Part shown: in pieces, positions 4,005 to 23,057 of the stretch
How the letters are laid out: each line of letters starts with the position of its first letter
Position numbering within the stretch: position 1 is the first letter of the stretch
From: a virus
Lineage: Duplodnaviria > Caudoviricetes
Reading direction: 5' to 3' (one strand)
DNA: 64,000 nucleotides
Virus record (IMG/VR): IMGVR_UViG_3300031555_001469
Notes under the pieces: model-generated
What the model saw: the letters and a program-made list of their open reading frames with translations, nothing else
Databases searched by the model: none
Told to the model about the DNA's origin: nothing
Position numbers and translations under genes: made by a program

Positions 4005-5147
4005 TCAACTATTCTTTTCTCGATTGATTTCACTCAGTAATTTATTAATATAACTGAGGGTTACCAAACATTGCTGATATGCTTGAGCATTTTCTATATA
4101 AGATCTAGTTGCAAATGATGTAGTAATAATATCATTTACAGTAGACTTTAACTGAACGATAGACGTAACAACGAAATCTATCTGAATTGCATTCTCAGAA
4201 GTCTTCATAACCGCTTTAATATCTTCTTCGATATTCTTAAGAGTCTTATAAAGATTCATAAAATTATCCAATAATTCAGTCTGTCTAATAGTAATTTGAG
4301 TAGGAGATAAATCAGCAAAAACCTGCTTCTCTAACTCTTTAATTTCATCATCTACTGAACCAGAAGTGTTATCATCTGTATTAGTGTCATCTTCTTCAGG
4401 AGCTTCTTCGGAGTCTTCTCCTTCTTCACCCTCATCAGATCCCTCTTCATCATCTGGGTCAGCTGCAGTATAATCTTCTATATCTTCACCGCCGTCTTCT
4501 GGAGATTCTTCTCCACCTTCATCAGATCCTTCATCTCCGTCAGGTTCAGATGCTGTATAATCTTCAGTATCACCATCATCTCCCTGAACCATATCTAAAT
4601 CTGATTCTCCATCTTCAGTTTCACCATCTCCCTCTGTATCATCATATCCAGAATCTGGATCATCTTCACTCGCAGGGTCTGGTTCATTTTCATCATCGGT
4701 AGCAGTATAATCTTCAGGTTCATCTTCCGATGCTTCTTCTGGTTCTTCATCAGGTACATCTTCAGAGCCGTCGTTTCCTTCTTCTCCTTCGCCCTCTTCA
4801 GTATCAGGAGCTGAAGCAGTATAATCCTCAGAATCATCGTCATCGTCAGTAGGGTTAATATCTGAAATATCATCTTCATTATCAGGTTCTCCTTCTTCAG
4901 ACCCCTCAGAATCTTCTGGTGCTGAATCAGCAGTATAATCTTCGGGATCTTCACCTTCAGGTGCATCCTCGCCTTCACTTGTTTCATCTGCCTCAGGGGA
5001 AGTAATTTCTTCCCCTTCAGCATCATCGTCCTGAGAATAATCGGTAGGCTTGTTATCGTCATCCTCTTCATCTTCTACAGTTTTTCCATTGATATCTAAT
5101 TCATGTATATAACCAAAGTTATATTTTTTTCCTGAATAAATTCCCAT
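4005..5147 (-). CDS. Highly acidic low-complexity protein with EDYTA repeats and helical C-terminus (scaffold/inner-head candidate)
   Basis: About 250 D/E-rich residues; DY[TS] motif six times; next to the capsid gene. Confidence 0.5.
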   Translation of the reverse strand: MGIYSGKKYNFGYIHELDINGKTVEDEEDDDNKPTDYSQDDDAEGEEITSPEADETSEGEDAPEGEDPEDYTADSAPEDSEGSEEGEPDNEDDISDINPTDDDDDSEDYTASAPDTEEGEGEEGNDGSEDVPDEEPEEASEDEPEDYTATDDENEPDPASEDDPDSGYDDTEGDGETEDGESDLDMVQGDDGDTEDYTASEPDGDEGSDEGGEESPEDGGEDIEDYTAADPDDEEGSDEGEEGEDSEEAPEEDDTNTDDNTSGSVDDEIKELEKQVFADLSPTQITIRQTELLDNFMNLYKTLKNIEEDIKAVMKTSENAIQIDFVVTSIVQLKSTVNDIITTSFATRSYIENAQAYQQCLVTLSYINKLLSEINREKNS

Positions 5148-7588: not shown

Positions 7589-7658
7589 AATAAGATACCT
7601 CCTATCTCTTATATTCTTTTATTAATATAAAGTTCACAGTCTAGGGGCTTACAGTTGA

Positions 7659-7670
7659 AACATATTAATA
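7659..7670 (+). promoter_or_regulatory. Late-type promoter AACA-N6-TA
   Basis: AACA-TATTAA-TA upstream of the protease SD. Confidence 0.6.
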
Positions 7671-7702
7671 AATCAATAAGCCCTAAAAAGGAGGTTATAG
7701 AC

Positions 7703-8512
7703 ATGGAACGACCTATTGGATATTTGATCGCCGAGTCTGCTATGACTACAAAGGCTGTAGATATCACAAATACTAATTCCCGTCGTGTAGTAGGAGAAGG
7801 AATCCTGCAGGACATGGATGTAGAAAATAGAAACGGTAGAATTTATGCTAAGGTAGACCTTGAACCAGAAGTTAGAGGTGCTAGATTAGCAGAACTTATT
7901 TCTACCGGTAACTTAAAAGGTGAAGATGGACATCCTGCTTCTAAAGAATTAGCAAGACAGCAGACCATCGACCCTCAGTGTGTATGTGTAAAATACACAA
8001 AGGTTTGGACTGAAGGTAACGATATTAAGGCTACTTTCATAGGCACAAACAATGATCTTGGTGCAGCATTTGACCAGGATTTAAGAGATGGTGAATTACC
8101 ATCCTTCTCTTTACGTGCTTTAGGTACTATTGAAAACAAGAGTGGTAAAGCTTATGTAAAGAATATTAAGATTATTACTTGGGATAGAGTTTACTACCCA
8201 TCCCATAAGAGAGCCTATACTTCTGGTTTAGTAACAGAGTCTGCTATCGCAGCAAACAGAAGTGGTAATCAGAGAGTATTCAAAGAAAGTGATAAGGGTA
8301 TTATCTTACCTATCACAAATGAAGAAGTAATTGATATGATCAAGAAGGAATCTGCTAATCTTAACAGATTACTTGATAGCTTTACCTCTGTATATGAATC
8401 CATTAACTATAATCCAAAATCTAATCTTGTTGAGTTAAGAGATAGATTTGGTAATATGTATATGGTTCACGTAGAAAACTATATTCAGGATCAGATCATG
8501 AAATATTGCTAA
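7703..8512 (+). CDS. Prohead core protease (T4 gp21-like)
   Basis: Motifs NRNGRIY, GEDGHP, FSLRALG, ITWDRVYYPS; AAGGAGG SD before ATG 7703. Confidence 0.85.
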   Translation: MERPIGYLIAESAMTTKAVDITNTNSRRVVGEGILQDMDVENRNGRIYAKVDLEPEVRGARLAELISTGNLKGEDGHPASKELARQQTIDPQCVCVKYTKVWTEGNDIKATFIGTNNDLGAAFDQDLRDGELPSFSLRALGTIENKSGKAYVKNIKIITWDRVYYPSHKRAYTSGLVTESAIAANRSGNQRVFKESDKGIILPITNEEVIDMIKKESANLNRLLDSFTSVYESINYNPKSNLVELRDRFGNMYMVHVENYIQDQIMKYC

Positions 8513-8519
8513 AATAAAT

Positions 8520-8545
8520 CCCCTAGTAGATTTCTCTACTAGGGG
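8520..8545. terminator. Bidirectional terminator hairpin
   Basis: CCCCTAGTAGA-TTTC-TCTACTAGGGG between convergent genes. Confidence 0.75.
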
Positions 8546-8553
8546 TATATTAT

Positions 8554-8847
8554 TTATTTTTTGGACTTTAATGTCACTATTAATGAGTTTGCTTCATCAG
8601 TTACTTTTCTTTCTACCTTAACCAGGCAATTATACGCACTATAATTTTCGGTGGTAGAATGCTTATCTAAATCTGTTCTCGTGACTGATAATACATTGAT
8701 GTTTTCAAATATCTTTTCGATATCAATTACACTTTTAGACTCATTCATAAAAGTTAAAGACAATACTGTTGTGTTAGTAGAATCTTTTCTTTCGGTAATT
8801 AAAGTTAATGTATTAAGTTCAATCTTATTATTAACCGTTATCTTCAT
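8554..8847 (-). CDS. Small hypothetical protein, last gene of the rSAM-2 operon
   Basis: 97 aa, AAGGAGG SD, follows the Cys-rich gene. Confidence 0.65.
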   Translation of the reverse strand: MKITVNNKIELNTLTLITERKDSTNTTVLSLTFMNESKSVIDIEKIFENINVLSVTRTDLDKHSTTENYSAYNCLVKVERKVTDEANSLIVTLKSKK

Positions 8848-8876
8848 TGTACATCTAGCCTCCTTTTATATTATTG

Positions 8877-9962
8877 TTAATCTGTACAAACGCTATCACA
8901 GTAGCAATTGTCATCACAACCACAGTCATAATCACATACACAATTGTAATTACAGCAAGTACCATTACAACAATTATAGTCGCATGTACAATCATTACCG
9001 CATCCATCTGCGCAGTCTCCATAACATCCACAGTCACTACCGCATCCATCCGGACAGTCATAATTACAACAGTCTTTATTACAAGAACAGTCTGTTCCAC
9101 ATCCGTCTGCACAATCACTATTACAAGAGCAATCTGAGCCACAACCATCTGCACAATCACTATTACAAGAGCAATCATAACAGTTATCATGTTGGCAATC
9201 TGAGTTACAGCAATCATAACATCCATCAAAATTACAACAATCGCCATTGCAAGCTCCATACCAAACATCTCCACAGTCATTACAATCTGTGCAATCAATG
9301 CATCCTTCTTGACAGTCTCTATTACAAGGACAGTCATTTACACAACAATCTGTTCCACATCCGTCTGCGCAGTCTCTATTACAAGAGCAATCTGAACCAC
9401 AACCATGTGCACAATCACTATTACAAGAACAGTCTGTACCGCAACCGTCTGAGCCGCAACCATGTGCGCAATTACTATTACAAGAACAGTCTGCACCACA
9501 TCCATCTGCGCAATCGTTATCACACGGGCAATTGCTATCACAATAACAGTCATATACGCAACAATCGTAACACTTATTACTATCACAATCACAGTCATAA
9601 TCACAGCAGTTATTATCACAACTACAGTTGAAATTACAACAATCCTGATAGCAACTACAATAATCCTTATACACAGATGCTTGTGTTGAAGATAGAGTAT
9701 TAACTTGGCTAGGAGACATACCGCTTATATCGGTTGGTAATGTACTACCTTTATAATAATAATTCATTCTATCACTACTATCTTTAATACAAGCATTAAT
9801 CTGATTAATCATATTAAGCAGATACTGTTTATTAACAACAGTACCAGACGTTAAAGTTGTTGCTGATCCTGAAAATCCATATCTATTATAAGTTTTAATT
9901 ACATTAGAATTTATGGTATTCATATCAGCAGCTGTTAATTTTTCACCTGACGATATAGCCAT
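8877..9962 (-). CDS. Cys/Asp-rich repeat protein (about 80 Cys), putative radical SAM modification target B
   Basis: About 100-aa Cys-poor N-domain, then repeats such as DCSCNSDCADGCG[ST]; directly downstream of a radical SAM gene; SD fits ATG 9962. Confidence 0.8.
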   Translation of the reverse strand: MAISSGEKLTAADMNTINSNVIKTYNRYGFSGSATTLTSGTVVNKQYLLNMINQINACIKDSSDRMNYYYKGSTLPTDISGMSPSQVNTLSSTQASVYKDYCSCYQDCCNFNCSCDNNCCDYDCDCDSNKCYDCCVYDCYCDSNCPCDNDCADGCGADCSCNSNCAHGCGSDGCGTDCSCNSDCAHGCGSDCSCNRDCADGCGTDCCVNDCPCNRDCQEGCIDCTDCNDCGDVWYGACNGDCCNFDGCYDCCNSDCQHDNCYDCSCNSDCADGCGSDCSCNSDCADGCGTDCSCNKDCCNYDCPDGCGSDCGCYGDCADGCGNDCTCDYNCCNGTCCNYNCVCDYDCGCDDNCYCDSVCTD

Positions 9963-9995
9963 ACTTTTCACACTCCTATCTTTTGTTTACAAAGA

Positions 9996-11213
9996 TTATT
10001 CGTGTTTAGAACACTTACATTCTTTTTTACTAAGCTGTTCTATTTTTTCTTCTAATCGATTGCATCTCTTCTCTAAGTAATCGATCTTATTAACCATAGA
10101 CTCTAATAACTTACTTGTATTTCTTCGCTCAATGATATTAATAAATCTATAGTAGTGTTTATTAATAACCGTCATAAATTTCTCGTCATAATTATTAGGT
10201 CTAGTATATAAATCCCCACCAAATTCAAAGTTTACAGCTACACAAACCTGACAAGGATTATCAGACATCTTAGATTCATCAATAGCAGCAAATATAGCCT
10301 GAATTTCAGGATTAATAGGATTTTCATTATGAATATTTCCATATAAAACATCATTTCTTCTTTCAGAATTATAGAAGAAGAATCTATGGCAAGGATAGAT
10401 ATTTCCATCCGTATCCATTCCAACCATTCTTCTTCCTGAAGAACAACCAGAACATCTATCGAATCGCTTAAATGGGAATCTATTCTTATTCAACGTAATT
10501 TTAGATAAATCAGAATTAATCTTATCTAATTCTCTATCTAAAATAAGTACATCGTTATCGTCCCAATCATCTTCTATTACCCAAGCAAATTTAAAGTGAA
10601 CCTTTAAAGTTCTAATAAAATAAAGATAAGAATCATAAAGTCTTGGTAAAGAAGATTTAGAAATTACAGAATGAACGTGCAGTCTCTCATGAGATATATT
10701 GTGTTTGTCAAAGAATTCCTTAAACTTAGGAATAGCAGCTTCAACCAGATCAGAAGATTTAATACATGTATTAGCACATGGTCTATTACCATTCTGAATT
10801 TCTGGAATACCATCAATAGATAACTGAATATCTACATACCCAGTCAATCTGTACCACTCTTCTAAAAAGGCTTCAACCTTTTCATTATAAATAGTACCAT
10901 TAGTAATAATAGCAAACTTTATTTTAACACCAGTTTCTTTTTCTTTTTCTACACCATATCTAAGCATACTTATCATAAGATCAGTGCAGAGCATTGGTTC
11001 GCCACCAAAGAATGTAATATTAACAGTTCGCTTCTTATCGTTAGAAGCAATAGCATTTGCGACTAAAAAGTCAATCATTTTAAATGCAGTTTCTTCACTC
11101 ATATACTTTGAAACAGCTCTAGTATCCTTTTCAAAGCAATACGTACATCTTAAGTTACAGTTTTCTGTTAAAATAAAATAACAGGAAGTGATATTGGTAT
11201 CCATCATAACCAT
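9996..11213 (-). CDS. Radical SAM protein with SPASM/Twitch-like C-terminus (peptide maturase type), rSAM-2
   Basis: CNLRCTYC (CxxxCxxC), FFGGEP, SIDG, CSSG...DGNIYPCHRF, CQVC. Confidence 0.9.
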   Translation of the reverse strand: MVMMDTNITSCYFILTENCNLRCTYCFEKDTRAVSKYMSEETAFKMIDFLVANAIASNDKKRTVNITFFGGEPMLCTDLMISMLRYGVEKEKETGVKIKFAIITNGTIYNEKVEAFLEEWYRLTGYVDIQLSIDGIPEIQNGNRPCANTCIKSSDLVEAAIPKFKEFFDKHNISHERLHVHSVISKSSLPRLYDSYLYFIRTLKVHFKFAWVIEDDWDDNDVLILDRELDKINSDLSKITLNKNRFPFKRFDRCSGCSSGRRMVGMDTDGNIYPCHRFFFYNSERRNDVLYGNIHNENPINPEIQAIFAAIDESKMSDNPCQVCVAVNFEFGGDLYTRPNNYDEKFMTVINKHYYRFINIIERRNTSKLLESMVNKIDYLEKRCNRLEEKIEQLSKKECKCSKHE

Positions 11214-11292
11214 TTCTCCTTTAAAGTAAAATATTTGGTATATTGAGAAACAATATACCTTATTACTAAGTTTACAGTATACTAAAAACGAA

Positions 11293-11322
11293 AATCCTAG
11301 TAGAATTTAATCTACTAGGATT
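11293..11322 (-). terminator. Terminator hairpin
   Basis: AATCCTAGTAGA-ATTTAA-TCTACTAGGATT. Confidence 0.7.
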
Positions 11323-11326
11323 AAGA

Positions 11327-11509
11327 TTATTCTTCTTCAGCAATCTGTGTATATTCAGTGTTAATCTTATTCACAAGTGTTGTATACTCAGACTGAGTAA
11401 GATTCTTACCATTATAATACACACTACACATATCTAAGAGATCTTCCTTAGATCTAGACCTTGTATCAATAAGTCTTTTAATAAGATTATATCCCATTGC
11501 TGTATTCAT
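11327..11509 (-). CDS. Small XkdX-like protein (tail-fibre associated)
   Basis: 60 aa, ...NLTQSEYTTL... pattern; paired with upstream small gene as in tail-fibre modules. Confidence 0.4.
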   Translation of the reverse strand: MNTAMGYNLIKRLIDTRSRSKEDLLDMCSVYYNGKNLTQSEYTTLVNKINTEYTQIAEEE

Positions 11510-11519
11510 AAAATACCCC

Positions 11520-11873
11520 CTATGAATTTAATTTTGCTCTTAATAAAGAAACCTCGTATAATAAATCAGCTTCATAATCTAAAAGAGCATTTACAGTTTT
11601 CTTAAGTTCTTTAATTTCTTCTTCCGGTGTTTTATTAGGTTCTATGACATTTTCTGTATCTTTTCTATAGAAAGTACCAGTTCTATGATCATAATGATCT
11701 CCTATAGAAACAGGTATATTCGTTGTTTCTATAGCCAATGCATCAAAACCATAATCTTGTCTCGCCAACTGATTAGCAAATTCGTAGTTATCACATACTA
11801 TAGTATTCTTAACCACATAAATTTCTTTTATCTCATGATAAGATAATATAGCAAAAATCTGATTACACCACAT
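11520..11873 (-). CDS. Putative tail-fibre assembly/chaperone-like protein
   Basis: 117 aa; V.NTIVC...IGD.YD..TGTFY then C-terminal coiled coil. Confidence 0.4.
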   Translation of the reverse strand: MWCNQIFAILSYHEIKEIYVVKNTIVCDNYEFANQLARQDYGFDALAIETTNIPVSIGDHYDHRTGTFYRKDTENVIEPNKTPEEEIKELKKTVNALLDYEADLLYEVSLLRAKLNS

Positions 11874-11991
11874 AGTATCAAATCCTTTCTGTATAGTAGT
11901 TTAATAGTCGTTTATCTAATTGTTTTCCTAGTTGAACTATAACTGGAAATCCTGAACAAACCTATAAATGAAATAAAAAGGAGATGAGAAA

Positions 11992-13026
11992 ATGTATATA
12001 GGAATAGATGGTATAGCAAGACTTATATCAAAATTATATATTGGGATCAATGGAATAGCAAGAGAAATAACTAAAATGTATATAGGAGTAGATGGATTAG
12101 CAAGATTAATATATCAAGCTGGCGTAGCAGCTGGTGAAGTAGTTTTTACTTCATCAAAATCTTGGACTGTGCCAGCAGGAGTTAGTAAAGTGGACATCTT
12201 CTGTGTAGGAGGTGGGGGTGGTGCAGGTGGCTGGTATTTTAGATACAATGAATCTAATAGTGCCGGTAGTTATACAGATACTACAAAAAATGGCGGTTCA
12301 GGTGGCGGTGGGTATACTACAACAGCATTAGCTGTAGCAGTAACACCTGGCGAAACTCTTACTATTACAGTAGGTGCTGGTGGTGATAGAGGCGAAAGCT
12401 ACGAATATTATAAATCATATGGTGAAACTGCACAACATTGGGGGTCCGTAACAAGTTCAGGTGACATTACAGCAGGAGCAACAGGTGGACAATCATCTGT
12501 TAAAAATAGCAGCGGTACTGTATTATGTAGTGCTAATGGTGGTTCTGGTGGTGCTAAAGCTACGACTGGTACATCATCTGGAGCTTCTTATGTATCAGCT
12601 GGAGGTGCTGGTGGTTCTGGTGGTGGTACTAGTACTGGTTGTTATTATGTATTTAATGGATCACAGGGAGATATTACAACTCATAGATCTTGGTTTAGTG
12701 CCGGTGGATCTACTGATATTTATAGAGCTGTAGATGGCGAAAGCGGCCCAAGTACTGAATATTATAGTGCATCATCAGATAGCACACCTAACGTTTATAG
12801 TAAAGGTGGTACAGGCCAGGGCACGACTACAAGATATTTTGCGCAATCTGGAGGTACGTTATATGGCTCTGGAGGTACTCAACCATATGATGCTACAAAA
12901 GTTTCTATAGGATATGGTCCTTGGGCTAATACAGGACATGGTGGCGGTTACGTATGGTATGATGGTTGGACTGGCGGATCTGCAGGATCTTCTGGTGTAG
13001 TTATCATTAGATGGGCTGCTCAATAA
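11992..13026 (+). CDS. Glycine-rich putative receptor-binding/tail-tip protein
   Basis: Three N-terminal YIG[IV][DN]G[IL]AR repeats; FTSS.SWTVPAGV..VDIFCVGGGGG, GGGG motifs, GSSGVVIIRW end. Confidence 0.65.
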   Translation: MYIGIDGIARLISKLYIGINGIAREITKMYIGVDGLARLIYQAGVAAGEVVFTSSKSWTVPAGVSKVDIFCVGGGGGAGGWYFRYNESNSAGSYTDTTKNGGSGGGGYTTTALAVAVTPGETLTITVGAGGDRGESYEYYKSYGETAQHWGSVTSSGDITAGATGGQSSVKNSSGTVLCSANGGSGGAKATTGTSSGASYVSAGGAGGSGGGTSTGCYYVFNGSQGDITTHRSWFSAGGSTDIYRAVDGESGPSTEYYSASSDSTPNVYSKGGTGQGTTTRYFAQSGGTLYGSGGTQPYDATKVSIGYGPWANTGHGGGYVWYDGWTGGSAGSSGVVIIRWAAQ

Positions 13027-13030
13027 ATAA

Positions 13031-13060
13031 AATCCCTAGTAGAGAAATCTACTAGGGATT
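13031..13060. terminator. Bidirectional terminator hairpin
   Basis: AATCCCTAGTAGA-GAAA-TCTACTAGGGATT between convergent genes. Confidence 0.75.
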
Positions 13061-13064
13061 AAAA

Positions 13065-15248
13065 TTATTTATATACTACATAAATAGTATCAGTTGCTAA
13101 AGCACTCGAACCAGCAGTTAAATCTGTCGTACCTTTAGTTATCGGTCTTAAATTATAGTCTGAATAATTTGCTGTATGGAGCACAACGTGATCTTTATAT
13201 GTGCCATCAGAAGCTACACATCTATATTGTAATCCATTTTTATCATTAGGCTGATAAGTGTAATTACAAACCAATAAGCCTCTATAAGCATTTTCTTGCC
13301 CAGGGGTAGTATAAGCTCGTACAGTAGCATGATTAGCATCCGCCAAGAATCTCCCATAGCCACTTTGTACAGCTATATTTCCAGTTAATGTACCACCACT
13401 CTTAGGTAATGCATAAGTGCTAATGTTTCCAGAGTGCACCATTGTAACATTACCTGTTGTATTACTATTGAAATCTATATGGAATGCTTTAGATATTGAA
13501 TTATGCGTAGCAAAGAATCTAATATGATTATCACATACATCAATGTGTACATCTTTATCAAATACATTATTAGTTTCTGGTTTAGCTAATACTATCTCTC
13601 CACCTTCGCTACCAGAAGCGGCCATTATATAAAGTCCACCAGTAAATGTAGTCTTTCCAGTAACAGTACCACCAGATGTTTTTAAATATGTGGTAGAAAT
13701 TTTATTTCCATCACCATCATTTAATGCTCTATTGGCATAGTACCAATTAGCTGGATTTTCTATAGTATGATCTACTGTAGTCATTGGGGTTATTGTATAA
13801 GACACATCCCAACCACTTCCCCAATCTTCATATTTATTACCCCAATGGCCTATTGTCACATCAGAAATTCTGATATTAGGATAAGACCATTGAGTATCGG
13901 AGTTACCAATCTGAACAACACATTGCCCCCCATTATTTCCAAAATGTACAGGTAAATTACTAATTGCTGAATTAGCAGCAGATCTGCTTATGGAATATGC
14001 TGATATACATTGCCAAATAACAGAATCTTTACATATATATCCAGCAACAAAATAATCACATGATTTATCTGGTTCAAAATCATATATGGAAATTTTGAAT
14101 TTAATCATAGTATAAGAATAGAATTGAGGTAGAGTAATTGTTAAATATCCAGTAACATTAGCTTCTTTAATAGAATAACTACCGCCTTCTGGATAAGCAA
14201 TATATCCATCTTTTCCTACAGCCGGCAATTGAATTTCGCCTGCTGTTTCTTCATCTAAAATTTTAAAATAATTTGCATTTACATCAAATCGGTATAAGCC
14301 AGTATACCCATCTCTCATTAATAAAGATCCGTAAGCTCCAGCTGCATTACCAAACTGAATTCCGGCATCACCGGTTGTTTCAGTTCTAAATAATCTCAGC
14401 ATAATTGGATCTGAATGGGCTATGCGTATAGAACCATTTATTATACCACCTGATAAAGGTAAGCAATACATGTCATAATTACCAGTATCTAAAATTTCTT
14501 CAGCTGTAGAGAAATCACTAGATGCTCGCACTAAATAGCCATTGCTAAATCCGATAGAACCCATAATTTTAGCTTTATTGGCAAAGGCGAGCATTGAAGT
14601 ATTATATTCACTAATATCATTAAGCATTAAAGGTATCATAGAAGCAGTTATTGCTTGCGAACCTATCACTTTAACTGCAGAGGAATCAATATTATCAATG
14701 GCTTCAGTAATAGTACTACCAATTGAACTAATGTCAGTATCTCCTATTTTTGTAATCAATTCTATTAAACTCTTTATAGCTTTAGAAATTGATCCAAATA
14801 AAGTTTTCATTGTACTTCCGGATGCAACTTCAGCCAAAGTTTCATCCTCAGTAAATTCTACCGTATTTGTACCTATGTCAGAATATTTTTCGACATAATT
14901 AAATAGATCTAAGTTAAATGCTTCTAATACTTGAGGCTCCTCTCCATCCCACCAAAAGTCAGGTGAACCCATATCTCTTATAAGAAAAGTATCACCTACT
15001 TTGAGTGTAGCAATATTCTCATCAGTTAACCAAGCCTCTAATTCATCTATTGTATCAAAAACACGTATTGTTGTAGCTCCTTGAGCCATCGATAATGCCA
15101 TTTTAGCATTTTGTGAACTTTCCTCCACTTCACTATACAATTTAGTTACATTGCTAGATAATGACTCTAAATTTATTTTGTCTTCTTTAGACATTAAACC
15201 ATCTCTAGCACCTGTAGCAAAAGATCTAGGGAAATTATTATGAAGCAT
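13065..15248 (-). CDS. Tail fibre protein A
   Basis: True start MLHNNF at 15248 (AAAGGAG SD); GLMSKEDK motif; repeated L..SGGT.TG fibre motifs; N-terminus paralogous to 19083..20702. Confidence 0.7.
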   Translation of the reverse strand: MLHNNFPRSFATGARDGLMSKEDKINLESLSSNVTKLYSEVEESSQNAKMALSMAQGATTIRVFDTIDELEAWLTDENIATLKVGDTFLIRDMGSPDFWWDGEEPQVLEAFNLDLFNYVEKYSDIGTNTVEFTEDETLAEVASGSTMKTLFGSISKAIKSLIELITKIGDTDISSIGSTITEAIDNIDSSAVKVIGSQAITASMIPLMLNDISEYNTSMLAFANKAKIMGSIGFSNGYLVRASSDFSTAEEILDTGNYDMYCLPLSGGIINGSIRIAHSDPIMLRLFRTETTGDAGIQFGNAAGAYGSLLMRDGYTGLYRFDVNANYFKILDEETAGEIQLPAVGKDGYIAYPEGGSYSIKEANVTGYLTITLPQFYSYTMIKFKISIYDFEPDKSCDYFVAGYICKDSVIWQCISAYSISRSAANSAISNLPVHFGNNGGQCVVQIGNSDTQWSYPNIRISDVTIGHWGNKYEDWGSGWDVSYTITPMTTVDHTIENPANWYYANRALNDGDGNKISTTYLKTSGGTVTGKTTFTGGLYIMAASGSEGGEIVLAKPETNNVFDKDVHIDVCDNHIRFFATHNSISKAFHIDFNSNTTGNVTMVHSGNISTYALPKSGGTLTGNIAVQSGYGRFLADANHATVRAYTTPGQENAYRGLLVCNYTYQPNDKNGLQYRCVASDGTYKDHVVLHTANYSDYNLRPITKGTTDLTAGSSALATDTIYVVYK

Positions 15249-15306
15249 CTTATCAGCTCCTTTCTCTTTAGGGTCTTTAGTATTATTAGGATGTTTCCGT
15301 AGTAAA

Positions 15307-15335
15307 AGCCAGAGTATCAGAAAGATACTCTGGCT
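15307..15335 (-). terminator. Terminator after rSAM-1
   Basis: AGCCAGAGTATC-AGAAA-GATACTCTGGCT with TTTT on minus strand. Confidence 0.7.
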
Positions 15336-15339
15336 AATT

Positions 15340-16752
15340 TTATTTATCTTTTTCTTCACTTCTACGTTTAAGTTCTTGCCAAGTAATATCTCCTTTATAC
15401 TCCAAACTAGGAAGAGAAAGTAACATTTCAAATTCCTCTTCTGGAATAATTTTGAGAGCCCACTCTCTTGAAACGTATAAGTTATACCTATTTTCAGGCT
15501 CTTTAAGTTCATAGTATTTAGCCCAATAATAAGCATTTGCTAAAGCTCTTGCTTTATGCATTTCACAGATATATGTCGCACGCTTATTAGCAGTACCATA
15601 TGTCTGATAATTGTAAGCTGAGCACCATGAGCACCCATCTGCAATAGGGCAATAAAAGCATTCATCAGTACTCTGAGTTTTTCTATCAATACAATTTAAG
15701 CAATTGATATTACAAGAATAATCTTCGGAAGTACCAATACCTTCATCAACACTACCTATTCTTAAAGGTTTTCTTGAACAACCTAAAGAACTTTCCATAT
15801 ATCTAATACAAGGATAAAGATAACCATCTGGGTCACAGGCTAACATAAGGCAGTTACCACCACACCAATTTGTTATATCATCCTCATGTTTAGGTACAAA
15901 AAATTTCTCATCGAAAATGGATAAGAACACATCTTCAACCACATCTTTTTCAATTATATAATCAGCAGCTTGCTTTAACTGATAATATAATTCGGTAGCA
16001 TGGTGTTGTTCCCATCCTTCTTCATACACACAATTAGCATTAATATCTTTATAACCTAATTCAATCATGTGTTTTAAAGCAGAAAATACATGCTGTATAT
16101 TAGCCGGGGCAATAGTGATTTTACTTCCCATATAGTACCCTTTGGACATCCAATCTGTAGCACCAGCAATAGCAATATCATAGCTAGGAGATCCATCGTG
16201 GAATACTCTACAGCTATCATGCAATTCTTTATTCCCGTCTATTGTAATAGAAAAAGAAATATTGTTTTTATACTTATCTAAGAATTTCTGCACTCTTTCG
16301 TCAAAGTATAATACACCATTAGAGCAGATAGATATCATAAACTTATCAACCCATGGATGGTTCAATCTAATACATTCACGAAAGAAATAACTTACTATCT
16401 TATCAATTAACTCTATTTCTAAAAAAGGTTCCCCACCAATAAATTCAATTATAACAGCAGGAGATTTAGAAGGGTTAATATATTCATCAAATCCTTTTTC
16501 TCCACTAAGCAATAAATCGATAAATTTCTTAGCAGTTTCAAAAGACATTTTTCTTTGGCCTTTGTTAATCTGGTAGCAATAAGTACATGCCAGATTACAA
16601 GCGTCTGTTACCTGAAAAGTAACTGTACGAGATAAAGTAGAATTTGTTGATTTACCAGATTCATCTACTGTAACCAACTCAGGATATAATCTTGCAATCT
16701 TATCCTGATACTGTTCAAATTCTCGCCTGTTTCTTTTTCTCTCTCTAAGCAT
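15340..16752 (-). CDS. Radical SAM/SPASM peptide maturase, CXXX-repeat target type, rSAM-1
   Basis: CNLACTYC, FIGGEP, WCGG...DGYLYPCIRY, CFYCPIADGCSWCSAYNY...C; resembles the TIGR04115 family as I recall it; start 16752 overlaps the upstream stop. Confidence 0.9.
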   Translation of the reverse strand: MLRERKRNRREFEQYQDKIARLYPELVTVDESGKSTNSTLSRTVTFQVTDACNLACTYCYQINKGQRKMSFETAKKFIDLLLSGEKGFDEYINPSKSPAVIIEFIGGEPFLEIELIDKIVSYFFRECIRLNHPWVDKFMISICSNGVLYFDERVQKFLDKYKNNISFSITIDGNKELHDSCRVFHDGSPSYDIAIAGATDWMSKGYYMGSKITIAPANIQHVFSALKHMIELGYKDINANCVYEEGWEQHHATELYYQLKQAADYIIEKDVVEDVFLSIFDEKFFVPKHEDDITNWCGGNCLMLACDPDGYLYPCIRYMESSLGCSRKPLRIGSVDEGIGTSEDYSCNINCLNCIDRKTQSTDECFYCPIADGCSWCSAYNYQTYGTANKRATYICEMHKARALANAYYWAKYYELKEPENRYNLYVSREWALKIIPEEEFEMLLSLPSLEYKGDITWQELKRRSEEKDK

Positions 16753-17101
16753 TATGATCATCTCCTGATAATTCAAAGTTATCAAATGCTGTTCCGATTG
16801 TAGAGAATGTTAAAATACCAGAAGTAAAATCCAAGTTCCAATTTGCTACTGCATTAGCCTTCATGATTTCTTCTGGAATATAATTATTAATTAATTCGTT
16901 CTTTCCTAATTCATAAGCAGCAACTCTTTCATTATACTTCTTATTATAAAGAACAAATGTTTCAGATTCAAGAATAGCAGGGTTATTAGCATTATCTGTA
17001 ATAAGCTCCTTAATAATCCTTGACATTCCTTCAAGTTCGAAAGATAATCTTTCGAGATAATCTACAGTTTCACTATTTACTTTCATAGCAAAATTTTTCA
17101 T
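16745..17101 (-). CDS. Accessory protein of the CXXX-repeat modification system (TIGR04116-like, from recall)
   Basis: 118 aa helical protein ending in NWNLDFTSG; translationally coupled to rSAM-1. Confidence 0.55.
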   Translation of the reverse strand: MKNFAMKVNSETVDYLERLSFELEGMSRIIKELITDNANNPAILESETFVLYNKKYNERVAAYELGKNELINNYIPEEIMKANAVANWNLDFTSGILTFSTIGTAFDNFELSGDDHNA

Positions 17102-17152
17102 AATATAATTCTCCTTTTTATTTTATTTTAATAATAAGTTCGAGGCATAATT

Positions 17153-18103
17153 TTATATAGTTTTACCAGTAGCTCCCCCAAAGCATTGAGAGGTACAAGA
17201 AGTATTACATGTAGAACTACAAGTAGAGCTACAACTACTCTTACAATTTCCAGAACAACTACTTGAACATCCATAACATCCACCATCGCATCCAGAGCAA
17301 CCAGAACATGATCCACCGCATCCAGAGCATCCATAGCAGTCTCCAGAGCATCCGCTACCACAACCACTACTACATCCAGAACAACCAGAACATGAACTAC
17401 ATCCATCACATCCAGAGCAACTAGTACATTGCCATCCACATCCACCAGTACATCCGCCACCGCAAGAAGCACTACAGCCACTACTACAGTTAGCAGAACC
17501 ATCTGTTGATCCTGAACATGAACCTGTACAGCTAGTACAACCAGCACCGCATCCACCGCATGAAGAACAACCACTTCCGCATCCAGAGCATCCGCCGCAT
17601 CCACTACTACATCCACCACATCCAGAACATCCACTACATCCAGAGCATGAACCGCAGCCAGAACATCCCTTACAACCGTAAGTACAAGATGATCCGCAAC
17701 CAGAGCAGCCACCACATCCACCACATCCAGAACATCCACTACAACCAGTATTACACATACCATAACATAATCCAGTACATGCACCTCTACAAGAAGAAGA
17801 TGAACCTGTTACAGATTCAGCTGCCCATTTATCTAATACACTATTTAAAGTAGCATAGTCGAAACTAGAAGGCAATTTTTCTCCAGCAACGACATTTCTT
17901 AAATTACCTACGTCTGCTACTTTTAAAATTAAATCAATAGTTTTCTGCCCATGCTCCGCTAAAATTTTGCCGCCGGTAGCAGGACTAGTAGTAAAATCAT
18001 AAGTAGCAGCAGTATAACCACTTAGTGAGCCATAATATTGTCTTCTGGCAAACTCAGTTTTTATTTTTGCTTTTATCGCAATTAATTCAGACGGAGTCAT
18101 CAT
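17153..18103 (-). CDS. Cys/Gly/Ser-rich repeat protein (about 57 Cys), putative rSAM target A2
   Basis: About 103-aa Cys-free N-domain, then CxxC/CxxxC repeats ([10 protein letters not shown]). Confidence 0.85.
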
Positions 18104-18164
18104 AAGTATTATTTCCTTTCTTCTAATATAGTATTTATAGGATTCTTAAGTAAGTATAACCTAT

Positions 18165-18176
18165 TATTTAAATGTT
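18165..18176 (-). promoter_or_regulatory. Late-type promoter AACA-N6-TA for target A2
   Basis: Minus strand AACA-TTTAAA-TA. Confidence 0.55.
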
Positions 18177-18198
18177 TCTGTAGCCGATTCAGAGGTAA

Positions 18199-18229
18199 AT
18201 ACCAGAGTATCGTAATGATACTCTGGTAT
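18199..18229 (-). terminator. Hairpin after target A1
   Basis: ATACCAGAGTATC-GTAAT-GATACTCTGGTAT. Confidence 0.65.
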
Positions 18230-18235
18230 ATCCAT

Positions 18236-19057
18236 TTAACTTTTTGTTGATGTTCCATAACACTGTGCAGTACACGTACTATAACAAGTACTACTGCAAG
18301 TAGTATTACAGCTATTGATACATCCCGATGAACAGCTAGATGAACAGCCTCCTCCGCATCCAGAGCAGCTAGAACATCCGCTTGAACAATCAGCACATCC
18401 ATTACACCCGCTACAAGAACTACAATGACCATCACATCCAGCACATAGCCCTTGACAGCCATTTACGCATGTACTATAGCATCCTCCACTACACGTACTA
18501 GAACACATAGTACAATTAGCTTGACAGGCTCCAGAACATGACATACTACAACTGGTACAACCATTACAGCCAGAACATCCACCTTGACATCCTACTGAGC
18601 ATGTATTACCACAAGCTGTATCACATCCACTACATGTACCGCAACCTGTACATCCGTTACAACTATTTTCGCAACCTGAACACCCACTACATCCAGAACA
18701 AGTAGAACCACAAGTACCTACACATAAGCCAGTACATGCACCTCTACAAGAAGATGTAGCTCCGGTAATTTCTTCAGTTGCTAAAATGTCTACATAATTA
18801 ATTAAAGCTTCATCAAAACCACTCGGTATTAATAAACCAGTCGATACACTAGGTAATCCCTCATGATCTTTTATCTTTAATAGTAATTCAATAGTTTTTT
18901 GACCATGCTCTGCTCTTATTAATTCTCCTGCAATTGGAGTAAATAAAAAATCATAATTAGCAGACGTATAGCCAGCTAACGATCCATAGTATTTTCTTCT
19001 AGCAAACTCATCCTTAATTTTACTCTTTAGTGTAATTAGCTGAGCTGCTGATAACAT
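18236..19057 (-). CDS. Cys/Gly/Ser-rich repeat protein (about 46 Cys), putative rSAM target A1
   Basis: Paralog of 17153..18103 ([32 protein letters not shown]). Confidence 0.85.
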   Translation of the reverse strand: MLSAAQLITLKSKIKDEFARRKYYGSLAGYTSANYDFLFTPIAGELIRAEHGQKTIELLLKIKDHEGLPSVSTGLLIPSGFDEALINYVDILATEEITGATSSCRGACTGLCVGTCGSTCSGCSGCSGCENSCNGCTGCGTCSGCDTACGNTCSVGCQGGCSGCNGCTSCSMSCSGACQANCTMCSSTCSGGCYSTCVNGCQGLCAGCDGHCSSCSGCNGCADCSSGCSSCSGCGGGCSSSCSSGCINSCNTTCSSTCYSTCTAQCYGTSTKS

Positions 19058-19082
19058 AGATCATTTCCTTTCAATTTATTAA

Positions 19083-20702
19083 TTAGGATACCATAATAAG
19101 TATCTTAACTTTTCCAATATCATCGGTATCTTTATTTTCTAAAGCTTTACCGATAATTGTTCCAGGAATAACAATATTTCTATCCTGAGTTATTCCTACA
19201 CCAGGTACATCTGAAGGGATAATAAGATCACCTTTAGATACAGTACCTTTTACTTTTACATATAATCGTCCTGCTAAACCAACAGGTACGAACTTCTTAT
19301 GGTTATCTTCCATATCTTCTAATTGTTCTCCTCCGACAATATGGCCATAGGAATCAGAATAAACACCAACGACCATAGTATCTCCATAACAACTAGATTT
19401 AGTTACACCAGATTCTGCCCAAGAGACAATATCTCCCGGTTCAAATTCTTCGTGTATATTCTCTTTCTCAAACCACTCGGCATAGTCGTTCCAAACTGCG
19501 TTGTAAACTTTACTACCAGTGATTGTACCAGAAGCATTAATAGCTCCAGCTTTAAAAGTTACAGAATTTATTGATAAAGTACCACTAGCAGATTCAATAA
19601 TTCTTGATGTATAATCTGCAGTAGAACTACCAAAATGGAAATCAATATATGGTGTAGCTGCAAAAAGCTCCATACATTGACTTTCGAAAGTAGTACCTTT
19701 AATTGTAGCAGCACAATAAAAACTCTTTCCGCCAGATACTTTTACATATGTAGTATCTTCCATAAAAATACCGCCACCATAAGTACTATTGTACCACCCG
19801 TTACTGTATATATTTGCACATTTAACTGGAGCGTTAGCTGCTCCATCTTGAGCCATAAAATTAAATACGCCTGTATTATCCATTAATAACGAAGCTGCTA
19901 TAACACCATTCCAATGGAATCCTATAGAAGGAGCATATCCTATTGTAGATTGAGTATTGCCAACTAATCCATTTTCTCTTATAGTTATGGCAGCATTGTT
20001 AAACCTATTTGCAGCTGTAGCTGTATATATACCGGCTGGTTCAAATAATCTTTTTCCGTTCATATTTATATCTCCAGTCATGATACCACCAGAGAGTTTT
20101 AAATATGATTTAGAAATATTACTAACTGCTTCAGATACGGTAGTACCTGAATCACTAACATCAGTAGATCCGACCCTAGCAATTAAACTTATTAAATCGC
20201 TTACTGCTTTAGAAACAGTAGCAAATAATGTAGTTAATTTACTTCCGCTACTAATTTTTGTTAATTCTGTAGCTTCTGTATAAGCAACCGTAGTATTGCT
20301 CGCATTTCCTGATAAAGTAAGATAGTCACTAAGATCCACTTTTTCTGTTTCAAGAATCTGAAGCTCTTCGCCATCCCACCAATAGTCAGGATTGTACATA
20401 TCTTTGATTAATAAAGTCGTACCTATTTTGAGTCCAGCTTTATTTGTCTCTACTGCTAACCATGCATCTAAATCAGCTTTGGTTTCAAATACAATAGCAG
20501 ATACTTTATCGAGCGCTGTTTGTAACGCTAAATTAGCTAAATCTTTTACTTCTGGAACTTCACCTAAAAGATAATCGATATCAGCCCTATTTTCAGTAAT
20601 ATTTTTTGGAAATGTGTTATCCACTAAATATTTATCTTCTTTAGACATTAACCCATCTCTTGCAGATGTAGCAAAAGATCTAGGCAAATTATTATGAAGC
20701 AT
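19083..20702 (-). CDS. Tail fibre protein B with C-terminal intramolecular chaperone (peptidase G2-like)
   Basis: MLHNNLPRSFAT..RDGLMSKEDK N-terminus; PYIDFHF...DYTSRI; WNDYAEWF...VGLAGRLYVKV...IIGKALE. Confidence 0.75.
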   Translation of the reverse strand: MLHNNLPRSFATSARDGLMSKEDKYLVDNTFPKNITENRADIDYLLGEVPEVKDLANLALQTALDKVSAIVFETKADLDAWLAVETNKAGLKIGTTLLIKDMYNPDYWWDGEELQILETEKVDLSDYLTLSGNASNTTVAYTEATELTKISSGSKLTTLFATVSKAVSDLISLIARVGSTDVSDSGTTVSEAVSNISKSYLKLSGGIMTGDINMNGKRLFEPAGIYTATAANRFNNAAITIRENGLVGNTQSTIGYAPSIGFHWNGVIAASLLMDNTGVFNFMAQDGAANAPVKCANIYSNGWYNSTYGGGIFMEDTTYVKVSGGKSFYCAATIKGTTFESQCMELFAATPYIDFHFGSSTADYTSRIIESASGTLSINSVTFKAGAINASGTITGSKVYNAVWNDYAEWFEKENIHEEFEPGDIVSWAESGVTKSSCYGDTMVVGVYSDSYGHIVGGEQLEDMEDNHKKFVPVGLAGRLYVKVKGTVSKGDLIIPSDVPGVGITQDRNIVIPGTIIGKALENKDTDDIGKVKILIMVS

Positions 20703-20747
20703 ATATTATCATCTCCTTCTTTTTAATTTTATCTAAAAATTAATTAT

Positions 20748-20759
20748 TATAAGGATGTT
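20748..20759 (-). promoter_or_regulatory. Late-type promoter AACA-N6-TA for tail fibre B and target A1
   Basis: Minus strand AACA-TCCTTA-TA. Confidence 0.6.
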
Positions 20760-20848: not shown

Positions 20849-20944
20849 ATGGAAGAATACATCAATGAATTAGAAGAAGTTGACTTTATGCCAGACGAAG
20901 ATTCTGGTGACGATGAAGAAGAGGAGGAAGGAAAGAATGAGTAA
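20849..20944 (+). CDS. 31-aa acidic peptide (MEEYINELEEVDFMPDEDSGDDEEEEEGKNE), not in ORF track
   Basis: AAAGGAGGT SD; its 3' end overlaps the lysin start codon. Confidence 0.55.
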   Translation: MEEYINELEEVDFMPDEDSGDDEEEEEGKNE

Positions 20945-23057
20945 AATTCTTTACGTACTTGACCCTGGTCACACTAAAGATTATAATAAAGGTGTAGCGC
21001 CGGGATATTATGAAGGTAACAAAATGCAGATATTAGCAGCTGCTCAGAAGAAATATTTAGAGCAGTATGGAATTACTGCAATACTTACTAAGGAATCTGC
21101 TAAAGAAAACCCTAGCTTATCTGCTAGAGGCAAGTTAGCAGTTACCAAGGGAAAAGGTTATGATATCGTAATCTTTGAAAGCTTACACACAAATGCTCCT
21201 GGTTCTGGAGATAGAGAAAAGATTTATGGAGTAAAGGCTATCAGATCTAAGTATTTACCTGATAGCGATCCGTTTATCACAACTCTTATGAATACAGTGG
21301 CAGAAACAATGAAAAAGGGTACTGGTGTAACTTATGTAAGAAACACTGGTACTAGAATGGGCTCTGATGGAAAGACTGATTATTATGGTGTAATCAGAGC
21401 AGCAGTTCAGAGTGCTACTTCTGTAGAAAAGGCAGCTAAGGGGCCTGTTCAGTATGCATTTATTACAGAACATGGATTCCATACAAACTCTGCAGAATGT
21501 GCTTGGTTAAATGATGAAAAGAATTTGGATCTTTTAGCAAAAAATAAAGCAGCTAAGATTGCTGAATGGTTTGGTTTAGCTTCTACTGATAAGGATGAAG
21601 AGGAAGATGAAATTCTTACTTCTATTATGGGTGCAGCTTCCTGTACAGCAGAACAGATGGCAGCTTATTTATTATCTGTAAACCCTAATGCAGGTGTATA
21701 TGCTACTGATATCCCTAAGTTATTCCTTGAAGAAGGAGCAGTTGAAGGAGTAAGAGGAGACATTGCATTTGCTCAGTCTTGTCATGAGACTGGTAACTTT
21801 AAGTTTACTGGTGATGTAGTTCCTGAACAGAATAACTTCGCTGGTATTGGTACTACAGGTGGTGGTGTTAAGGGTGCTTATTTTGAGAGTCCTAGATTAG
21901 GAGTAAGAGCTCAGATCCAGCATCTTAAAGCATATGCTACTAAAACTTTATTAAAGCAGGAATGTATCGATCCAAGATTCGGTCTTGTTACAAGAGGTAT
22001 CGCTCCGAATGTAGAAGACTTAGGGGGAAGATGGGCATATCCTGGTTACGCAACTTCTACGTACAATTCTTTAATTGAAGCAAAAGAAGCTAAGGATTCT
22101 TATGGTCATAAGATTGTAAAGATTCTTAACAAGATTGCTGCTATTGAAGTTAAAGAAGAAACTATCGAAGAAGATTCCAAACAGGAAGGCGAATTATACA
22201 TCGTAGCATCCGCTTGCACTAAGAAGAGTGTATATGTGGATAGAGTTGGTGCCTTCAGATTATTAGACAATGCTATTGCTAAAGCAAAGTCTGAAAATAA
22301 GAAGGTATTTGCTGATAGTACAGGAGCACAGGTGTATCCTGAACCTGAAGTAAAACCAGTTGCTAAATATTATAGAGTAGCTAAGAATTTCACAAATGGT
22401 AAATATGTTGGTCAGACCGGCGCTTTCAGTGTTTTAGTAAACGCTGTTAAGAATTGCGGAGAAGGTCTTCAGGTATTTAGCCCAGACGGAGAACCTTTAT
22501 ATCCTAAGTTTAAGAATACTAAGGTAGAAGGAAATCCTGGTACAATTCATATCATTAAGGACGGAGATTTTGGTGAAGGTGTTGAACTTCATTATACTCC
22601 AGAATATGGTGATGCTAACCTTGATAAAGTTCATGGTCCAGCACACTTAGGAAATGTATATGATGTAGTAGGTACTGTAACTTATAATGATAATACATTC
22701 TATTTATTATCTAATGGGAGTTACATTACCATATCTACCACATACGTTAAGTTTACTAAGAAAGAAACTAAGTTAACTTATACTGCTGGTAGATATAAAA
22801 CAACTGATGTTATGGCATTAAGAGAAGGCCCTGGTACTACTTATGACAGGGTAGATTGGAATAAGATGACTGCATCTGCTAGAAAAAATAATCCTGATAA
22901 GGGCACTGGTGCTTATTATAGAAAGGGTTGTACTTTCTATGCTTATGAAGTAGTAAATACAGATAAGACAGCTTGGGCTAGAACCCCATCTGGATGGATT
23001 TGTATTGAAGGTCCAAATAAGAATAAGCAGGTTAAGTATTGTACTCCTGTAAAATAA
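20937..23057 (+). CDS. Multidomain cell-wall hydrolase: amidase_3 + GH73 glucosaminidase + C-terminal SH3b-like binding region
   Basis: LDPGH...E, SLHTNA, TEHGFHTN; AQSCHETG, NNFAGIG; ALREGPGT.Y, WARTPSGWI. Confidence 0.85.
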   Translation: MSKILYVLDPGHTKDYNKGVAPGYYEGNKMQILAAAQKKYLEQYGITAILTKESAKENPSLSARGKLAVTKGKGYDIVIFESLHTNAPGSGDREKIYGVKAIRSKYLPDSDPFITTLMNTVAETMKKGTGVTYVRNTGTRMGSDGKTDYYGVIRAAVQSATSVEKAAKGPVQYAFITEHGFHTNSAECAWLNDEKNLDLLAKNKAAKIAEWFGLASTDKDEEEDEILTSIMGAASCTAEQMAAYLLSVNPNAGVYATDIPKLFLEEGAVEGVRGDIAFAQSCHETGNFKFTGDVVPEQNNFAGIGTTGGGVKGAYFESPRLGVRAQIQHLKAYATKTLLKQECIDPRFGLVTRGIAPNVEDLGGRWAYPGYATSTYNSLIEAKEAKDSYGHKIVKILNKIAAIEVKEETIEEDSKQEGELYIVASACTKKSVYVDRVGAFRLLDNAIAKAKSENKKVFADSTGAQVYPEPEVKPVAKYYRVAKNFTNGKYVGQTGAFSVLVNAVKNCGEGLQVFSPDGEPLYPKFKNTKVEGNPGTIHIIKDGDFGEGVELHYTPEYGDANLDKVHGPAHLGNVYDVVGTVTYNDNTFYLLSNGSYITISTTYVKFTKKETKLTYTAGRYKTTDVMALREGPGTTYDRVDWNKMTASARKNNPDKGTGAYYRKGCTFYAYEVVNTDKTAWARTPSGWICIEGPNKNKQVKYCTPVK

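Follow-up and report, generated by a model that had tools for sequence, protein, structure and literature searches.

Why does a phage encode two radical S-adenosylmethionine (SAM) enzymes, each next to giant Cys-repeat proteins, within its tail region? The question is raised by positions 8554–20759 of a 64,000-nucleotide stretch (hereafter the window) of the IMG/VR virus record IMGVR_UViG_3300031555_001469. A first-pass annotation, made from the letters of this stretch, had recognized the arrangement and proposed that the phage cross-links Cys-rich virion appendages. The enzyme–protein pairings were found again in many unrelated phages, and the analysis reported here indicates that phages probably use the chemistry of antibiotic peptides to cross-link parts of their tails. 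If so, phage morphogenesis would include an additional covalent maturation step, carried by a module that is very common in gut phages, and the uncharacterised enzyme family TIGR04115 would gain a role.

Two radical-SAM cassettes in a jumbo phage

The virus record (229,764 bp, 93% complete) originates from faecal metagenomes. Since it encodes a major head protein, a head protease, a terminase and a tail sheath, and given its length, it represents a jumbo myophage. Contigs from two other public runs are identical to long parts of the region (0 differences), so the region is not an assembly artefact. All genes of the cluster are present in the order and on the strands first described, and each gene of the region is preceded by a purine-rich ribosome-binding site (RBS). 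The two cassettes, A and B, comprise the following genes:

19083–20702, minus strand: fibre B, 539 aa, first gene of the cassette-A unit and probable tail fibre or spike
18236–19057, minus strand: substrate A1, 273 aa with 46 Cys; helical N-domain of ~105 aa followed by a Gly/Ser tail
17153–18103, minus strand: substrate A2, 316 aa with 57 Cys; paralogue of A1 (57% over the N-domain)
16745–17101, minus strand: accessory protein, 118 aa, conserved partner of rSAM-1
15340–16752, minus strand: rSAM-1, radical SAM/SPASM maturase of TIGR04115, 470 aa from an ATG with an RBS
9996–11213, minus strand: rSAM-2, 405 aa, unclassified SPASM/twitch-type maturase, 24% identical to rSAM-1
8877–9962, minus strand: substrate B, 361 aa with 81 Cys; N-domain of ~100 aa followed by an Asp/Asn-rich tail
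8554–8847, minus strand: conserved 97-aa companion of B, with homologues beside cassette B in loci L098, L101, L106, L107 and L120

Cys accounts for 17–22% of A1, A2 and B versus ~1–2% of typical proteins encoded in the window. The substrate lengths of 273–361 aa given in the first-pass annotation are correct, and its range of 46–80 Cys has to be extended to the 81 of B. No hydrophobic signal was found. Consistent with the earlier statement that no transporter or leader peptidase is encoded in the cluster, the 229,764-bp record contained no ABC transporter above the cut-off and no C39 peptidase; nor was a tyrosine integrase found in it. The closest relatives of rSAM-1 among bacterial genomes belong to Lachnospiraceae, a kinship that suggests a clostridial host.

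Each enzyme clade is paired with its own class of Cys protein

We surveyed enzyme–substrate pairing across loci dereplicated at 85%, 29 of the rSAM-1 clade and 10 of the rSAM-2 clade. A Gly/Ser Cys-repeat gene lay within 4 kb of the enzyme in 27 of the 29 rSAM-1-clade loci, and the accessory was likewise detected beside 27 of these enzymes. In the nearest Cys gene, 93–100% of Cys were spaced by 3 or 4, and Asp or Asn (D/N) followed at position +3 in at most 24%. In the rSAM-2 clade, which is separate from the likewise well-supported rSAM-1 clade and has support of 100/100, a B-type gene was located 4–72 bp downstream in 9 of 10 loci, with D/N at +3 for 34–82%. The exceptions were all near contig ends, and searches from the substrate side likewise recovered rSAM-2-clade enzymes. 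Cassette A is present as well at four of these ten loci, namely the window, L098, L107 and L118, and the substrate classes were never exchanged. Kinship among the loci adds to this pattern; the survey thus establishes dedicated pairs, as the first-pass annotation had assumed for the two sets, rather than many independent events. We consider it very likely that the enzymes modify their neighbouring Cys proteins.

The two substrate classes differ in their sequence codes. All spacings between the 46 Cys of A1 are 3 or 4, and A2 has this spacing too; the Cys of the A1 and A2 tails are set among Gly, Ser and Thr, with Gly enriched at Cys+2 (z 3.9 for A1). The tail of B instead follows C-x-x-D/N, with D/N at Cys+3 in 51 of 80 tail Cys versus 32 expected (z 5.7), and an independent profile search showed that this code is kept in most B homologues. 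Three candidate relatives from the B profile (P0103–P0105) were rejected as unrelated repeats. The N-domains of A and B show no supported homology (hhalign probability 3%).

Further Cys genes were seen at two of the double loci. Downstream of the double cassette in L098, around an endolysin gene (15005–18535), four more short Cys-repeat open reading frames (ORFs) of 42–135 aa without an N-domain are possibly extra substrates. In L118 (5807–8837), the public annotation misses the Cys-repeat genes and calls Val/Ala-rich shadow frames instead (three called genes).

rSAM-1 is a TIGR04115 enzyme, and rSAM-2 appears to found a new family

rSAM-1 scored 499 bits against TIGR04115 (cut-off 350) and so belongs to a family that has a name but is uncharacterised. 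Its invariant Cys residues (C63/67/70 and C308/326/376/379/385/388/407 in the numbering of the 481-aa ORF) include the CxxxCxxC motif and the full set of SPASM auxiliary-cluster ligands. rSAM-2 retains C19/23/26 together with a reduced auxiliary set, five Cys (C254/257/275/321/324) versus seven in rSAM-1. Its best family was PapB (149 bits; rSAM-1 scored 167; cut-off 340), its TIGR04115 score was 95 bits, and no listed family was passed; against SCIFF (cut-off 425) the two enzymes reached 110 and 99. As a single query against viral contigs rSAM-2 gave no match, and a sequence look-up returned this genome only. Cassette B fits none of the listed families, and rSAM-2 and B would represent a new maturase–substrate family. 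What this locus adds is that second family, its sequence code and a built-in test of specificity.

For both enzymes the closest solved structure was CteB (5WGG). The N-terminal ~90 aa of CteB, its RRE region, are absent from both, leaving no room for an N-terminal RRE. The closest characterised relatives, the PapB, SCIFF/CteB and QhpD families, are thioether formers. QhpD, which acts on the gamma subunit of quinohemoprotein amine dehydrogenase, cross-links Cys to Asp/Glu in a protein subunit that is retained; it introduces about three links into an enzyme subunit, compared with the tens proposed here for a viral structural protein, and its family TIGR03906 was matched at 98 bits, far under the cut-off of 453. 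In the PapB/PapA (freyrasin) system, PapB joins CX3D (PMC12373016), and NxxcB joins Cys to Asn or Asp (PMC9389541). The Cys-Asp/Asn code of B resembles these acceptors, but its spacing is C-x-x-D/N with Cys first, B carries 81 Cys rather than ~6, and rSAM-2 has fewer auxiliary Cys. Cys-Gly sactionines are also known (PMC10288494).

Among bacteria, four tandem enzymes related to rSAM-2 (35–41% identity) are encoded at the L119 locus (5333–13366), along with one more related gene and a protein of 601 aa that has a small Cys cluster; these enzymes form the sister group of the phage rSAM-2 clade. Other Asp-rich Cys proteins adjoin radical-SAM enzymes of other clades in L126, L171, L231 and L207, so there may have been more than one recruitment of Cys-Asp pairing; in L207 the Cys repeat lies inside a protein of 928 aa that has a signal-like start and an HExxH motif.

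Comparison with the CXXX-repeat system and SPN3US

Cassette A resembles the CXXX-repeat system (TIGR04115 maturase, TIGR04114/04117 targets, TIGR04116 accessory, TIGR04119 maturase; PF27846) in its TIGR04115 enzyme, its Cys every 3–4 residues and its small adjacent accessory gene. The first-pass annotation had named TIGR04114–04116 as the related families; the assignment was borne out for the enzyme, and TIGR04114 and TIGR04116 gave no match. A1, A2 and B gave no TIGR04114/04117 match, and their homologues reached just 10–17 bits despite the Cys spacing of 3–4. TIGR04119 was not among the matches shown for the cluster proteins. Bacterial CXXX clusters, as in L112 and plasmid pAPRE01, contain a 56–57-aa open frame (with 4 Cys in L112), a 728-aa enzyme 38% identical to rSAM-1 (in L112 a TIGR04115–TIGR04119 fusion), ABC transporters and regulators. 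Phage cassette A, in contrast, has substrates of 273–316 aa, neither TIGR04119 nor an exporter, an accessory below TIGR04116 detection and a tail context. As a whole, the phage system lacks three of four CXXX-cluster features. Among 399 genomes of one bacterial class we found two TIGR04115 matches, one phage-type and one of the ribosomally made, post-translationally modified peptide (RiPP) type, too few for a ratio.

We read the accessory protein as a distant counterpart of TIGR04116 that acts jointly with the enzyme. It gave no match to the TIGR04116 hidden Markov model (HMM), and its alignment with a true TIGR04116 protein was weak (hhalign E 0.0014, probability 17%). In its predicted structure (predicted local distance difference test (pLDDT) 89), one strand precedes a long helical hairpin, which two further strands follow, an order of elements that differs from the RRE, and no RRE was among the fold matches. 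The fold search yielded generic helical matches (best Z 8.0), no clear PDB match and no Foldseek match. In the Atlas, the accessory matched part of a 578-aa CXXX-maturase cluster with a template modelling (TM) score of 0.68.

The rSAM-1 type is abundant, with relatives in more than 5,000 sequence clusters at E≤1e-60. Among the 120 top homologues (P0112–P0231), 17 are of intein-containing length (e.g. L075:8972–11347). The mapped inteins occupy three different Fe-S ligand Cys positions, one in the radical-SAM motif and two in the auxiliary clusters; these insertion sites suggest that the gene is conserved and selected in phages. Directly 3' of the rSAM-1 homologue in L088 lies a Tad2-like anti-defence gene (3340–3849).

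A search of cultured-phage records with the A1 N-domain gave no match. A related module was found in the Salmonella phage SPN3US (Seoulvirus), in which CxxxC genes and two radical-SAM genes directly follow the fibre candidates gp168–170. One broad clade unites SPN3US gp163 with rSAM-1, but the SPN3US substrates measure 130–134 aa, enzyme identity is 26%, and no B-type cassette is present. The annotated gp166 is a wrong-frame Val/Ala shadow of a Cys gene (L081:7094–8123; ~143.2–144.2 kb). gp166 is absent from the SPN3US virion proteome (PMC5694885). We rejected this absence as counter-evidence, because a search of GenBank proteins could not detect the Cys frame, the two Cys ORFs (~143.4–144.2 kb) being missing from that annotation. 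As SPN3US and L118 illustrate, gene callers prefer the shadow frame over the Cys frame, and the module is easily overlooked. A published RiPP survey, moreover, dropped precursors longer than 600 bp (PMC10288494).

The cassettes mostly lie near tail genes, and fusions in relatives suggest a surface role

At 17 of the 22 cassette-A loci tested, across sipho-, myo- and jumbo phages, the neighbours included a gene of the tail, the baseplate or the virion (such as Dit, a baseplate wedge or a tail fibre), which places the cassette at the distal-tail slot and supports the tail-module location given in the first-pass annotation. Cassette A occurs after Dit and minor tail genes in siphophages, after baseplate-wedge genes in myophages and after fibre genes in large phages, often with lysis genes next. 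Cassette B comes after genes for baseplate J/gp48 or for Peptidase_G2 fibres. Two earlier ideas fared less well. The system is not special to lytic jumbo phages, being present in siphophage contigs of 30–61 kb, in myophages and in prophage-like loci. Moreover, thioethers had been proposed to replace disulfides in an anaerobic host, a rationale weakened by this wide phage range and by SPN3US, whose host is a facultative anaerobe.

Fusions in relatives further connect the Cys repeats with the phage surface, in agreement with their first assignment as virion appendages. The repeat is joined to two Gly-rich domains in a family of 809–829 aa, and beside more distant radical-SAM enzymes it is joined to Hoc-like and central-fibre-J-like proteins. 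In twenty siphophages, the radical-SAM enzymes are 98%, N-domains 97% and minor tail proteins 98% identical, and the Cys repeat is followed by a domain with unrelated alleles of 140 and 195 aa (minimum identity 19%). Such an allele swap is typical of receptor-binding tips and suggests a surface role. Collectively, the products of the Cys-protein genes are likely to be virion parts.

Proposed mechanism and alternative explanations

We lean towards thioether cross-linking of tail-tip proteins, with confidence only slightly beyond even. In this model, the phage would possess two dedicated, late-expressed maturation cassettes, each stapling its own tail-associated protein. The N-domain of ~100 aa would act as an uncleaved recognition module for its own enzyme, together with the accessory in cassette A, and would probably also dock the substrate on the baseplate or fibre. 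The enzyme would then advance through the Cys tail, where an auxiliary Fe-S cluster would bind each thiol for linkage to a carbon close by. By analogy with PapB, NxxcB and the Cys-Gly sactionines, rSAM-2 would most likely form a β-thioether from Cys(i) to Asp/Asn(i+3), and rSAM-1 a Cα thioether to Gly/Ser, with a preference for Gly at i+2. Such a protein might form a stiff rod or filament at the tail tip that withstands reduction and is able to carry a receptor-binding domain. The module is real and widespread, and it is probable that it constitutes a variant of RiPP-type maturation with a virion role. Chances are even that many tailed phages bear host-contacting proteins with tens to >100 radical-SAM thioether staples, made by at least two independently recruited chemistries (Cys-Gly/Ser and Cys-Asp/Asn) that both occur here. 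Cross-linking of this kind would mean virion proteins joined by enzymes, and RiPP-like substrates of great length and heavy modification. A pair of processive enzymes acting by different codes on 250-residue substrates would also be useful for peptide engineering.

Several points weigh against this model. rSAM-2 lacks part of the second auxiliary-cluster motif of CteB-type enzymes, and acceptors are scarce for part of the 46–81 Cys in each substrate, which means that many of these Cys have to remain free or bind metal. At the 22 loci tested for tail genes, the neighbours examined were picked by size, not blind, and five of the loci had no clear tail gene. The A N-domain (modelled for A1 with pLDDT 71) matched no solved fibre structure; its fold search returned generic helical matches only (best PDB Z 5.3), and against a viral structure library it matched only uncharacterised phage proteins. 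Finally, the searched literature, which leaves out most subscription papers, contained no demonstrated reaction for any TIGR04115 enzyme; nor did it describe this module or radical-SAM maturation of virion proteins.

How would other explanations account for the data? Virion parts could be modified by means other than thioethers, through anSME-like oxidation to thioaldehyde or formylglycine, through desulfurisation, or as metallothionein-like tails that hold metal or Fe-S clusters. The second-best structural relative of the rSAM-2 profile is indeed anSME, the reduced auxiliary Cys set would agree with such chemistry, and CxxC, CxC and CC are classic metal ligands. However, anSME was outscored by ranthisynthase families, and the acceptor-like bias (D/N at +3, G at +2 or −1) follows the enzyme clade, as cross-linking predicts; we regard these chemistries as unlikely. 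Alternatively, the cassettes could produce a RiPP (a toxin, signal or anti-defence peptide) freed at lysis, their position in the tail region reflecting late expression only. Substrates of up to 250–650 aa and variable length, their fusion to large adhesin-type or swappable domains, the slot between the last tail gene and the lysis genes across virion types, and the lack of an exporter and a C39 peptidase all speak against this idea, even though rSAM-1 truly belongs to TIGR04115, the bacterial enzymes of this family form a clade found in ordinary RiPP clusters, a head protease gene adjoins and lysis could stand in for export. We judge it quite improbable.

A role outside the virion, as a chaperone or scaffold for fibre assembly or as a modified protein acting inside the host cell, would be compatible with the gene slot, which fibre chaperones also use, and with an A N-domain that has no known fibre fold; the swapped C-terminal domain and the fused Gly-rich domains point to surface display instead, and we give this role still less credence. 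A chance neighbourhood, in which mobile genes of a variable tail region are functionally unlinked, finds some footing in the mosaic structure of the region, with its inverted Gly-rich gene and several terminators. The near-invariant pairing over 39 loci and two clades, with clade-specific codes, largely refutes it already, and we consider it very improbable indeed.

Neighbouring genes and organisation of the region

Between and beside the cassettes are the following genes and hairpins:

15307–15335, minus strand: hairpin followed by TTTT, probable end of the fibre B–A1–A2–accessory–rSAM-1 transcript
13065–15248, minus strand: fibre A, 727 aa, probable tail fibre
13031–13060, either strand: bidirectional terminator-like hairpin that parts the gene for fibre A from that for the Gly-rich protein
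11992–13026, plus strand: Gly-rich adhesin-type protein (PF21722, 45.7 bits, cut-off 24.3) with weak matches to phage families
11327–11873, minus strand: two small genes of 117 aa and 60 aa, the 60-aa protein matching phrog_2310
11293–11322, minus strand: terminator-like hairpin parting cassette B from the upstream genes
8520–8545, either strand: bidirectional terminator-like hairpin that closes cassette B, beside the head-protease gene
7655–8512: head-maturation protease gene abutting the cluster

Both fibres were named tail fibres in the first-pass annotation, a label we keep as provisional. Fibre B had no tail-fibre match in PHROG, and fibre A matched no named family. The two have their N-terminal ~200 aa in common (46% over 205 aa). 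The C-terminus of fibre B is a Peptidase_G2 domain (PF11962, 30.8 bits, cut-off 25), a self-cleaving intramolecular chaperone, and fibre B homologues lie immediately upstream of rSAM-2 or cassette A in loci L098–L101, L106, L107 and L120. The 117-aa and 60-aa proteins, a pair that we take to be XkdW/XkdX-like, are probably fibre-assembly helpers. At the start of the Gly-rich gene (window 11992–12105), a 14-aa repeat (42 bp) is present about three times ahead of the PF21722 domain.

Terminator-like hairpins were more frequent than expected (14 observed versus 5.3), and the four listed above divide the region into transcription-like units. On this layout, unit 1 would comprise fibre B, A1, A2, the accessory and rSAM-1, and unit 2 would comprise rSAM-2, B and the 97-aa gene. 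Promoter-like sites in the region did not exceed chance (56 versus 64). The hairpins at 8520–8545, 11293–11322 and 13031–13060 have in common the stem CCTAGTAGA...TCTACTAGG, a repeated phage-specific element.

Elsewhere, a third, weak radical-SAM match below the cut-off lies at the record end (G000:C1:229246–229611). In the window, an extremely acidic low-complexity protein of 380 aa is encoded at 4005–5147, flanked by the major head gene and a gene encoding 806 aa, and positions 20880–23057 encode a multidomain endolysin of 725 aa, divergent from fibre B and with several PHROG endolysin matches.

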